DNA of 36,457 bases, taken from assembly GCA_964392975.1 (NCBI GenBank), contig CAYMRU010000003.1, positions 1 to 36,457 on the forward strand, given 5' to 3'. Below the pieces are notes generated by a model. That model ran no database searches and was not told the DNA's origin. It saw nothing but the letters and a program-made list of their open reading frames with translations. This DNA is from an uncultured Candidatus Poseidoniales archaeon (GTDB lineage Archaea > Thermoplasmatota > Poseidoniia > Poseidoniales > Thalassarchaeaceae). How positions within the stretch are numbered: the stretch's first letter is position 1; each line of letters begins with the position of its first letter. Shown one piece after another: positions 12,436 to 15,297 of this stretch. The position numbers and the translations under genes were made by a program.

Positions 12436-14553
12436 ATGCTGCCCGAGTCAGCGCCGCTCTCCGTTAGGAATCGTCCCCCACAGGCAAACAGGGTAGTTTC
12501 AATCGTGGCGCTTCTCGTTGTCTTGGGATTCGTAGGCACCAGTCAAGCCGCAGATTACCAAAGCGGCTGGTATGTTTCGGACTCTGGGGTCCAACAAGAC
12601 CTGAACTGCGCTGAGACAATTGGCGAACAGATATGGGCTTTCGGAGAAGATGGTGTGATGCTGGTAAGCAATGACTTCGGGAATAGTTGGGAGAACTCAA
12701 GCTCCGCTACGAATGCTGATATCCATCACTGTGACTCGGCTTTCGGCGCCTTGGCGGTAGCTGGCGATTCGGGTGCCGTCCTCATCAAGCAGGATACAGG
12801 TGCGGAATGGTCGGAGATATCACTTTCCGAGTCGGTAAACGATATCTCACTGACGAGCAATAGCAGCATTATTGCAGTGGGCGATACGGGAGCAATGTGG
12901 AGATTCAATGGCATTAATTGGGCCGAAGTACAGACCGGAGTCGATGAGGACCTGCTTGCCGTGTCGTTCCTCGATGGAGCCCTCGGGGTGGCGGTCGGGA
13001 CCAATGGTACGATTATTTTCTCAGAGGACGGAGGTCAATCATGGGACTACAGGGACGCTCCAAGTGAGGCCATAGAGAGGCCTATCGTCTCAGTCGAGTT
13101 CTACAGCACTGTCAGAATCTACGCAGTGACCGATCAAGGTCACATCATCAAGTCGGCTCGGGAGGGGGCTACAGATGTCGGTTTTCTTTGGAACTTGGTT
13201 GATATCGAGAGGCATTATCCTCCAGGAAGCAATGAGTTCGTAGGTGGGCTGTCATCTCTAGAAGTCACAATCCATTCAATCGATGTAGTCTCAACGAACA
13301 AGTTCCTCCTAGTCGGTGCTGATGGCTATGTATCGATGAGCAATGATGGAGGAAATATCGTCAGACAACAGATTAACCCTATCGGTAACGAGACATCGCT
13401 CAATGATGTCGTGATGGTCGATGGATTCGATGGAGTGGTCGTCGGAGATTCCGGAGGTGTGCTATGGACTGACCGAGCGGGAGAGGATGAGCAGATTGGA
13501 TTCCAAGTAATCAATTTCAACGATTTCGACAATTTTGTTGACTACTCAAAGGATATGCTCTTCGCTGGCTTCATCGCTACCATCAAAATCGTAGTCTTTG
13601 GAATTGTGATGGGTTTCCTGATTGGAGTTTCGCTGGCGATGTGCAAGACTTCACCGACTTCAATGAAATATATGGTGGAGAGGTTTGATCCGAAAGTTGT
13701 CAGAGTGGTGGGCACGATAATTGCAGGTGCAGGCCTGTATCAGTTCTATGTCGCAGTTCCGAAAATTGTAGATTTAGGACTTGATGGGATAGAGAATATC
13801 TTTGTTCCAGTCGGAGAGCCGGGGGCTTTCGGCAGAATCCTGTTGGGAATCGGTCTGACCTTCGTGGGCGTTCTGTTCATGTCCTATGATGGTAAGTTCT
13901 CCAAATTGGACTTGAAAGGATTCAAACTCAACCCATGGGGAGTCAGGCCTCTGAATACGATTGCAACCGTTTATACTGACTTCTTCCGCAACACTCCGTT
14001 AATCGTGCAGTTCATGTTCATCCACTTCGGTCTACAATTGGGCAAGTTGATTCAGGAGCCTGCACAGGCATTCCTAGAGGACTCGACAGGAGGTGTGGCG
14101 CAATTCATCAAGGATGAGTTCCTCAATGATAGAGCATACATCAGTGCAATTTGCGCTCTTGGTTTCAACTCTGGAGCATATCAGTGCGAGACTATTCGTG
14201 GGGCGATTCAGGCGATTCCCTCGGCGCAGATGGAGGCCGGCAGGAGTGTTGGGCTGACCTATATGCAAACGATGAGAAGAATCATTCTGCCTCAAGCAAT
14301 CAGAATCTGTATCCCTCCTATGGGTAATGAGATGGTGAACCTCGTGCTCAATTCATCATTAGCAATGGTCATCGGATATGCAGAGTTGACGCGGCAGGGG
14401 AAGCTGATTACTGCAGTCACATTCCAGATGGCGTATACCTGGGGCATGGTTCTGGTTTCCTACTTCGTTATCACATGGACTTTGGCCTTGTTACTCAGGA
14501 GGCTCGAGGAGAGCACTAGGATACCGGGATTGGGGATGACAGGAGGTGAGTGA
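12436..14553 (+). CDS. Polar amino-acid ABC transporter permease (HisM/GlnP type) fused to an N-terminal YCF48/BNR-like beta-propeller
   Basis: Signal peptide, then repeats (A/V)G..G....S.D.G..W (SNDFGNSW, SEDGGQSW, SNDGGN). C-terminal permease motifs Y..FFRNTPLIVQ, EAA loop AY.CE.IRGAIQAIP.AQMEAG.S.GLT, IILPQA.R..IPP.GN and SSLA..I...EL. Confidence 0.9.
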   Translation: MLPESAPLSVRNRPPQANRVVSIVALLVVLGFVGTSQAADYQSGWYVSDSGVQQDLNCAETIGEQIWAFGEDGVMLVSNDFGNSWENSSSATNADIHHCDSAFGALAVAGDSGAVLIKQDTGAEWSEISLSESVNDISLTSNSSIIAVGDTGAMWRFNGINWAEVQTGVDEDLLAVSFLDGALGVAVGTNGTIIFSEDGGQSWDYRDAPSEAIERPIVSVEFYSTVRIYAVTDQGHIIKSAREGATDVGFLWNLVDIERHYPPGSNEFVGGLSSLEVTIHSIDVVSTNKFLLVGADGYVSMSNDGGNIVRQQINPIGNETSLNDVVMVDGFDGVVVGDSGGVLWTDRAGEDEQIGFQVINFNDFDNFVDYSKDMLFAGFIATIKIVVFGIVMGFLIGVSLAMCKTSPTSMKYMVERFDPKVVRVVGTIIAGAGLYQFYVAVPKIVDLGLDGIENIFVPVGEPGAFGRILLGIGLTFVGVLFMSYDGKFSKLDLKGFKLNPWGVRPLNTIATVYTDFFRNTPLIVQFMFIHFGLQLGKLIQEPAQAFLEDSTGGVAQFIKDEFLNDRAYISAICALGFNSGAYQCETIRGAIQAIPSAQMEAGRSVGLTYMQTMRRIILPQAIRICIPPMGNEMVNLVLNSSLAMVIGYAELTRQGKLITAVTFQMAYTWGMVLVSYFVITWTLALLLRRLEESTRIPGLGMTGGE

Positions 14554-15297
14554 TTGTCTGATGGACTGCTTAGGATAGAGAACCTGCACAAGATATACTC
14601 CGGTGGAGTCCATGCTGTCAGAGGGATTTCATTCAGTGTCAAGGAAGGAGAGTCTGTGGCGATAATCGGCTCTTCAGGAAGCGGTAAGTCGACTGTTCTC
14701 AGGTGCATAAACCGACTGATAGAGCCGACAGAAGGAGAGGTCTATCTCAAGGACGAACAAATTAACACCCCGCATGCAGACATCAACGAAGTTAGATCAA
14801 GAATTGGGATGGTCTTCCAGTCCTTTGAGCTCTTCCCACACCTCAAGGTGATTGACAATATTACCCTAGGGCTGGTACATGTACGTGGGATGTCCAAGGC
14901 TGAAGCCAAGAGGCAGGCATTGGAAGTGCTTGAGAGAGTAGATATGCTCGATAGAAAAGATGCCTATCCGGGCAATCTATCTGGCGGGCAGAAACAGCGA
15001 GTAGCAATCGCCCGCTCGCTGGCGATGAAGCCCGAAGTGATGCTGTTCGATGAGCCTACTAGCGCATTGGACCCAGAACTTATCGGCTCGGTACTGCAGA
15101 CCATCAGGAGTCTTGCCGATGATGGTATGACCATGGTGGTGGTGACTCACGAAATTGGATTTGCCAGAGATGTGGCGGACAGAGTAGTCTACATGGACGA
15201 GGGAGTAGTGGCCGAAGAAGGTCCTTCTACGATAATCGAGGAGCCCAAGACTGAGCGAATGCGCAAGTTCCTATCCTCAATTCACGAGGAAGATTAG
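14554..15297 (+). CDS. glnQ: Polar amino-acid ABC transporter ATP-binding protein
   Basis: Walker [20 protein letters not shown], signature [13 protein letters not shown], Walker [14 protein letters not shown]-loop VTHE. TTG start after SD GGAGGTGA. Confidence 0.95.

Follow-up and report, generated by a model that had tools for sequence, protein, structure and literature searches.

A propeller-fused polar amino acid ABC permease in Poseidoniales archaea and a candidate receptor domain on a LivJ-type lipoprotein

Architecture of the fusion and its partner ATPase

The stretch of DNA analysed here (the window in the following) comprises 36,457 nucleotides of contig CAYMRU010000003.1 from an uncultured Candidatus Poseidoniales archaeon (assembly GCA_964392975.1, 82% complete, 140 contigs) and harbors a two-gene operon for a predicted ATP-binding cassette (ABC) importer. 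The first gene joins a Ycf48/BNR-like beta-propeller to a permease of the polar amino acid transporter (PAAT) type in a single 705-aa frame, with both Pfam domains above cut-off, and the second, for the ATPase, begins at the base right after the permease stop codon (Table 1). This agrees with the original prediction of a propeller–permease fusion in an operon bounded by purC and gdhA; as had been stated there, no substrate-binding protein (SBP) gene lies between these flanking genes.

Scoring 53.9 bits against PSII_BNR/YCF48 (cut-off 27), the propeller was modelled by AlphaFold2 (62 sequences) as an all-beta domain over aa 39–350 at a predicted local distance difference test (pLDDT) score of about 90, with a strand order that suggests seven blades. 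Foldseek returned Ycf48 as its top matches (5oj5, E 4e-15, TM-score 0.73 by target length), the nearest structures being titled 'YCF48 bound to D1 peptide'. Profile, model strands, Foldseek and Asp-box-like repeats thus agree on the YCF48/BNR propeller fold; the repeats, originally described along some 310 aa, are clear at aa 78–85 and 196–203 and degenerate elsewhere. The domain falls outside the Ycf48 orthologues (NF010237, 54 bits, cut-off 326) and outside the Vps10/sortilin group (Sortilin-Vps10, 22 bits, cut-off 33). Vps10/sortilin propellers have ten blades, and the 312 residues found here fit the smaller Ycf48 structures instead. Ycf48/HCF136 (PF14870; PDB 2xbg, 5oj5), a photosystem II assembly factor, shares the fold and the Asp-box-like repeats and provides the top Foldseek and phmmer matches, whereas the present propeller is 17–18% identical to it, acidic (15% D+E, 3.5% K+R) and fused to a permease. 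We found no propeller paralogue in this genome, and a search of shorter proteins with the propeller gave 20 hits, namely distant Ycf48-like proteins and three close, partial or short sequences that we take to be contig-end fragments. Many Ycf48-like repeat matches sit within very large proteins. Ahead of the propeller, the hydrophobic stretch of the signal (aa 15–41, ending SQA|A) is poorly conserved (mean column conservation 0.33); cleavage probably occurs after aa 38, or the helix may be left as an uncleaved anchor.

The permease matched BPD_transp_1 (PF00528; 66.6 bits, cut-off 26.4) and HEQRo_perm_3TM (TIGR01726; 54.6 bits, cut-off 42.2), and carries an EAA-type loop, EAGRSVG, at aa 600. 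Its sole solved match was 4YMS (E 1.4e-29), which we take to be the Art(QN)2 homodimer of Caldanaerobacter (Thermoanaerobacter) tengcongensis: aa 363–406 align to residues 4–46 of the 4YMS permease chain. Because this alignment resumes only at aa 502, aa 407–501 represent an insertion, a feature absent from the original prediction, whose two modelled helices would keep the permease topology. The insertion is longer in some relatives (fusions of 682–874 aa) and absent or short in the short-form fusions described below. AlphaFold modelled the membrane-embedded region with low confidence (core pLDDT about 40–70), which leaves domain packing outside our interpretation. The permease core itself is tightly constrained, with ratios of nonsynonymous to synonymous substitution rates (dN/dS) of 0.015–0.027.

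With regard to subtype, the permease had been called 'HisM-type', of which the PAAT assignment stands and the HisM label does not: the GlnP, cystine and EhuC models (126, 121 and 120 bits) outscore HisM (88), and all equivalog scores stay below cut-off (GlnP 126 against 303, HisM 88 against 306, ArtQ 84.5 against 277 bits), leaving the protein outside the GlnP, HisM and ArtQ equivalogs. PF00497 has no match in the 705-aa protein, so this is not a GlnP-type SBP–permease fusion. GlnQ gave the ATPase its highest score (291 bits), followed by TcyN, EhuA and HisP, all four staying under their equivalog cut-offs; the protein possesses all six motifs—Walker A, Q-loop, LSGGQ, Walker B, D-loop and H-loop. 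Permease domains and a GlnQ/HisP-type ATPase together mark a PAAT type I importer; the two genes likely form a homodimeric complex, as in Art(QN)2, and its substrate is presumably a polar amino acid.

Table 1 Features of the propeller–permease locus (positions in the window)
Feature	Position	Strand	Basis or remark
Propeller–permease fusion gene	12436-14553	+	Single open frame, 705 aa, ATG start
N-terminal export signal, aa 1-38	12436..12549	+	Hydropathy peak aa 15-41, model helix 16-32
Ycf48/BNR-like beta-propeller, aa 39-350	12550..13485	+	Pfam, AlphaFold2, Foldseek; predicted extracellular
Linker and permease transmembrane helix 1, aa 351-406	13486..13653	+	4YMS alignment, modelled helix 364-405
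MGIIb-specific membrane insertion, aa 407-501	13654..13938	+	Two predicted extra helices
PAAT type I ABC permease core, aa 502-705	13939..14553	+	RNTPL and EAA-type motifs
GlnQ-type ABC ATPase, 247 aa	14554..15297	+	TTG start; profile scores, catalytic motifs
purC–fusion spacer, 115 bp	12321..12435	.	Relatives have a divergent SBP gene (~325 aa) here
purC, divergent flank	11409..12320	-	Pfam/NCBIfam; context only
gdhA, convergent flank	15294..16649	-	4-nt overlap with ATPase gene; context only

Distribution and ancestry of the fusion

To map its range, we searched 301 genomes of the class with a profile of the fusion. Matches were frequent in the organism's own family, taken to be Marine Group IIb (MGIIb; 76 of 113 genomes, including some contig-end fragments accepted for their strong permease score), and occurred in 13 of 43 genomes of family f4, presumably Marine Group III, which belongs to another order of the class (two of the 13 were dropped as permease-only), as opposed to none in three further families (0/141 in f3, 0/1 in f2, 0/2 in f5). 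Among 351 genomes of the phylum, matches outside MGIIb and f4 cover the permease part only; within these two clades, no stand-alone or propeller-less form was seen. Searching 1.84 billion representatives yielded eight fusions of 560–634 aa, 34–43% identical and with both Pfam domains. Three short-form fusions (MCE7737424.1, OLS19808.1, MCH8906330.1) carry the source label Candidatus Heimdallarchaeota, a label that we took as given together with the underlying bins, the proteins residing on 4–14 kb contigs. The architecture search suggested in the original prediction thus places propeller–permease fusions in MGIIb, in f4 and among Heimdallarchaeota-labelled proteins. A metagenome scan returned no identifiable locus of a short-form or Asgard fusion, and none of the 206 matching records in a plasmid search spans 80% of the fusion protein.

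An origin of the fusion as an assembly chimera, or as a read-through of two genes, might be suspected from an incomplete genome in 140 contigs. The same unbroken frame recurs in dozens of independent assemblies at about 43–95% identity, however, and we give this explanation practically no credence. In databases, the orthologues appear with unspecific names, 'YCF48-related protein' for example, and a literature search, with most subscription papers outside its reach, retrieved no paper on the fusion, on permuted SBPs or on the three-domain receptor introduced below. We conclude that the fusion genuinely exists, is conserved and makes this an apparently undescribed kind of PAAT importer variant.

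We then placed the permease core in a tree of 52 rows and 184 columns with a bacterial-type outgroup, excluding 8 rows of an earlier set. All fusions grouped in a single clade (99/93), which also took in a propeller-less Hodarchaeales protein on a long branch; none of the other sampled Thermoplasmatota permeases joined this clade. MGIIb and f4 were nested within Heimdallarchaeota-labelled and unlabelled fusions (99/97, 100/94, 99/97), a nesting seen in both careful trees. Its main groups reappeared in the propeller tree, where deep nodes were less well supported, an agreement arguing that the two parts were joined in one old fusion. In an approximately unbiased (AU) test on a 42-row set, a sister arrangement was not rejected (p 0.07). 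These trees support a fusion shared between Poseidoniia and the Heimdallarchaeota-labelled groups, and an Asgard donor is likely. An apparent sister position of propeller-less Asgard permeases vanished once Thermoplasmatota permeases were added.

A different outer domain occupies the same position in family f11, where seven permeases bear PKD domains in place of the propeller; a canonical SBP is encoded next door in six of them, and the contig of the seventh is too short to show its neighbours. These loci (L277, L279, L280, L281, L282, L285 and L294) encode one or two N-terminal PKD domains and form an independent parallel to the propeller fusion. Other unusual permeases included GlnP-like SBP–SBP–permease fusions in the Thermoplasmatota family f7 (L288:3617-5857 (-), L289:3700-5943 (-)) and, in genome G023, AapQ/AapM-like permeases (770 and 505 aa) whose N-termini are extended by long hydrophobic stretches (L147:3875-7698 (-)); the liv permease of that genome is likewise one continuous fused chain, some 1250 aa in length (L141).

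Binding domains beside and beyond the operon

The original prediction had proposed looking for an orphan family-3 SBP elsewhere, and such a domain does exist. In this genome, a single SBP_bac_3 (PF00497) match exceeded the cut-off: a lipoprotein adjoining purM on contig C46, ending at the contig edge after 153 aa, with a livHM fragment on contig C125. The copy spans 111 of 264 profile positions and includes T40 and R45, D129 falling past the contig end. PF00497 matched 22 of 41 relatives, these being the same genera that carry the fusion. Complete orthologues are lipoproteins of about 1030–1080 aa, in which one family-3 domain is followed by two LivJ-type domains (Peripla_BP_6/ANF_receptor), and their gene lies upstream of livHM/livG. 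The family-3 domain is circularly permuted (AncQR 57–231 before 10–47), its model (pLDDT 75) folds like amino-acid SBPs (5t0w, E 3e-11), and its top sequence match in the PDB is the GlnP SBD tandem 6h30. T40, R45 and D129 occur in 20/20 sequences; in the alignment they coincide with GlnP residues T96, R101 and D183, which are reported to hold the alpha-carboxyl and alpha-amino groups of the ligand (PMC11331510). Taken together, the C46 match and its orthologues provide the genome with a family-3 SBP with conserved ligand residues, as expected for a PAAT system, and we consider it probable that the LivJ-borne domain is the working SBP of this importer.

Next, we compared the occurrence of the domain with that of the fusion. 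Across 114 own-family genomes, 72 have both, five the fusion only, one the domain only and 36 neither; the domain is hence present in 72 of 77 fusion-bearing genomes, the five exceptions being 80–87% complete. As these genomes are kin and not independent, no significance test was applied to this co-occurrence. LivJ homologues as such are more widespread: they matched 138 of the 301 genomes, and f3, which yielded neither fusion nor domain, contributes 29 of its 141 genomes to this count. Of 12 chosen livJ loci, 11 belong to genomes lacking the fusion and the last, cut at its 5′ end, to an f4 genome with an adjacent SBP; none has the domain. Moreover, genus g13 shows the same trm1-purM-livJ-livHM-livG order and the same signal peptide, with LivJ starting straight after the signal. 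The co-occurrence and these domain-less livJ loci argue that it is the propeller permease, and not the surrounding liv operon, that the domain follows.

SBPs for branched-chain and L-amino acids have been reported in most MGIIb (PMC6336850), and livK ranks among the most transcribed MGIIb genes in the available reports (PMC9723583; PMC5069720), as do amino-acid receptor genes more generally (PMC9723583). The livK transcripts presumably come from the three-domain gene.

Further arrangements of such receptors were observed. Genome G204 encodes a 1285-aa receptor with a zinc ribbon, acidic repeats, a diverged family-3 domain and two LivJ domains (L263:2856-6710 (+)). In a third arrangement of the family-3 domain, a canonical-order SBP of the same family resides inside surface proteins with LDL-receptor class A repeats (L272:3-2678 (-), L273:4210-6528 (-)). 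LivJ receptors themselves carry one, two or three tandem LivJ domains, depending on the genome (L299–L306, L295–L298).

Relatives also hold an SBP gene next to the fusion. In f4, a divergently transcribed SBP gene adjoins the fusion in 10 of 11 loci, the eleventh contig beginning inside the fusion. The encoded protein (about 320 aa) ends in a C-terminal membrane tail, is permuted at another point than the LivJ-borne domain, shares with it an unusual LTDDT-type linker, and retains T, R and D in 8/8 full-length sequences. In one f4 genome (G045; L274:5875-6477 (-)), the locus lacks both fusion and ATPase, and its SBP gene is truncated. The MGIIb counterpart, found in 16 sampled genomes, has lost the ligand R (0/22 sequences), keeps D in 3/22 sequences and sits on a long tree branch, but is under purifying selection in four of five pairs (dN/dS 0.08–0.22; one pair saturated). 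At L037:4905-5873 (-) and 21 other MGIIb loci, this neighbour SBP lacks the arginine and the YPPF motif and keeps its membrane tail. It is possibly a pseudo-receptor; given that a ligand-impaired SBP of MetNIQ is reported to still support uptake (PMC6233128), it may not be idle. In the genome studied here and its two closest fetched loci, the neighbour SBP is cleanly missing; in this genome, no match to the neighbour-SBP profile was obtained at E<=1 in stop-to-stop frames of >=25 aa. In the simplest reading, an ancestral three-gene system would have preceded the grafting of an SBP copy into LivJ, after which the local gene would have decayed and been lost repeatedly.

These data also bear on the proposal, raised in the original prediction, that the propeller replaces the SBP. 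The operon lacks an SBP gene, a divergent SBP-sized ORF is found in only 4 of 74 loci (some of them cut by contig ends) and five fusion-bearing genomes have no match to the LivJ-borne domain. Yet f4 genomes have the fusion side by side with an intact SBP gene, the family-3 domain accompanies the fusion in nearly all MGIIb carriers, with the exceptions confined to incomplete assemblies, and in G045 the SBP is truncated where fusion and ATPase are absent. We therefore judge replacement to be very improbable, and are highly confident that the propeller is an accessory to a permease still in need of an SBP.

Possible roles of the propeller

Which accessory role, then, might the propeller play? Among those raised originally, we noticed no conserved protease gene beside the fusion that the propeller could scaffold (the flanking genes of one subgroup being unannotated), and scaffolding of an SBP is our leading idea. 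Specifically, propeller permease and ATPase would form a homodimeric importer, the family-3 domain on the LivJ lipoprotein would deliver amino acids to it in trans, and the propeller would serve as a non-catalytic outer docking surface for this receptor rather than as a receptor itself. We assign this reading as a whole a probability of roughly 0.55; that docking is the job of the propeller is, on its own, a tentative proposal, and both topology and delivery in trans are inferred. A single receptor would then likely feed two different transporters. In E. coli MalFGK2-E, the extracytoplasmic P2 loop of MalF holds the binding protein. Since PKD domains take the place of the propeller in f11, the outer module appears exchangeable, and an exchangeable non-catalytic module on an SBP-dependent permease, viewed alongside MalF P2, is best accommodated by docking of a tethered receptor. 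P2, which we use as a working model, has another fold and another position, being a loop insertion and not an N-terminal propeller.

Conservation within the propeller was assessed over 28 sequences from MGIIb, f4 and short-form fusions at a threshold of 75% or more. Conserved positions are mostly the Gly and Trp of the repeats; a non-glycine set in blades 4–6 (R206, R227, S240, W252, S286, K289, D304, Q312) falls mostly on AB/CD loops, and a small set of polar residues is kept from MGIIb through the Heimdallarchaeota-labelled proteins. We saw no conserved top-face polar cluster or binding residues in this set. At dN/dS of 0.25 and 0.09 against two relatives (a third pair being saturated), the propeller is under purifying selection, including where the neighbour SBP is gone.

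In a second conceivable role, an SBP is needed and the propeller would capture peptides, proteins or particles, concentrating substrate or handing it to the SBP. The Foldseek neighbours with bound D1 peptide and the purifying selection would fit such a module. BtuG, for one, has a propeller fold. It is reported to capture vitamin B12 for transport (PMC6143338), the AztD propeller to transfer zinc to an ABC binding protein (PMC6689063), and MGII are predicted protein degraders (PMC6336850). While AztD and BtuG resemble the propeller proposed here in being extracytoplasmic helpers of importers, they are separate proteins with high-affinity ligand sites, and sequence conservation revealed no comparable site in our domain, whose conserved positions are mainly those of the repeats. 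Ycf48 bears an arginine patch. This patch has no counterpart in a domain with so few basic residues, and the PKD domains at the same position in f11 speak against a dedicated capture function as well, which we consider unlikely.

Alternatively, the propeller could be a generic surface module—a spacer, shield, adhesin, or folding or assembly aid—with no direct part in transport. It outlives the decay and loss of the adjacent SBP, is substituted by PKD in f11, and is lacking from related permeases of other Thermoplasmatota, and Ycf48-like repeats often occur in very large proteins. Against this, the matching main groups of the propeller and permease trees point to one old fusion, neither stand-alone nor propeller-less forms were seen in the MGIIb and f4 clades, and a polar residue set persists as far as the Heimdallarchaeota-labelled proteins. 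On balance, we doubt this explanation.

Several observations weigh against the docking of a LivJ-borne receptor. D129 of the copy in this genome, and its link to LivJ, are deduced from relatives 90–94% identical; G204 has the domain with no fusion detected; and co-occurrence among kin may reflect few independent events. The domain could serve the adjacently encoded Liv permease instead. The propeller changes at roughly threefold the pace of the permease (median end branches of 0.6 versus 0.2) and was kept through decay, loss and re-permutation of SBPs, which fits a tight docking interface poorly, and its loop faces were assigned from strand order only, not from coordinates. MGIIb organisms are, in addition, described as uncultured (PMC9723583). 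A complex prediction for propeller aa 39–376 (62-row alignment) with the LivJ-borne domain (20 rows) gave 0.00 twice, and we do not count it as evidence. What was observed in favor of the domain and the permease being cognate partners is the co-occurrence in 72 of 77 genomes and the homology of the domain to the adjacent SBP of f4.

Relative to known systems, the importer resembles Art(QN)2 (PDB 4YMS–4YMW), likewise PAAT GlnHPQ/HisQMP2, in having one permease and one ATPase gene and a HEQRo_perm_3TM score above cut-off. It departs from Art(QN)2 by its 312-aa propeller and two-helix insertion, by an SBP gene outside the operon, and by a candidate SBP of circularly permuted form that is joined to LivJ domains. 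In Lactococcus lactis, the PAAT permease of GlnPQ also has extracellular domains attached covalently (PMC11331510), but there the attached domains are the binding domains themselves, whereas here the propeller is linked and the binding domain sits on another protein. The candidate receptor shares two Peripla_BP_6/ANF_receptor domains and a liv operon with LivJ/LivK–LivHMGF (hydrophobic amino acid transporter, HAAT), while bearing an extra family-3 domain of another structural class.

More speculatively, one chimeric lipoprotein—probably the highly transcribed 'livK' of MGIIb—would feed two unrelated ABC importers, the Liv permease through its LivJ domains and the propeller permease through its family-3 domain, with the propeller recruiting the receptor, the permease having reached the planktonic Poseidoniia from Heimdallarchaeia, and the neighbour SBP first turned ligand-blind and then lost. 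MGIIb archaea are abundant. If the docking reading is correct, annotations as 'livK' and as an SBP-less permease overlook a shared receptor that couples polar-amino-acid and Liv-type importers, and a propeller is to be added to the outer accessory domains recorded for type I permeases; were the propeller a generic decoration, the fusion would represent an unusual build of a familiar transporter. The gene set offers a compact case of receptor duplication, permutation, grafting, decay and loss.

As for the surroundings of the operon, a scan for promoters and terminators of bacterial type found nothing, and one marine metatranscriptome (5% of words) contained a single 234-nt RNA contig at 12451-12684, too little for use. 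The GC content over the permease (window 13000-14500) is 0.47 compared with about 0.52, probably on account of amino-acid composition. The position of gdhA is taken by other genes in part of the relatives: in one subgroup (L062:9094-14343 and similar loci), conserved genes for proteins of about 410, 330 and 910 aa lie downstream of the ATPase instead, for which Pfam gives nothing beyond a weak CD36 hit. Downstream of purC, a Sulfotransfer_5 and class IV aminotransferase pair (window 9768-11400 (-)) is kept in many relatives and gone from that position in others. Elsewhere, the window encodes a receiver-like domain fused to a PPDK nucleotide-binding domain (18887-21493 (+)) and three very large predicted surface proteins: an FG-GAP/CARDB protein of 1885 aa (4110-9767 (+)), a transglutaminase-like protein with Ig and TSP3 repeats of 2989 aa (24433-33402 (-)) and an NPCBM-associated protein of 977 aa (33485-36418 (-)).

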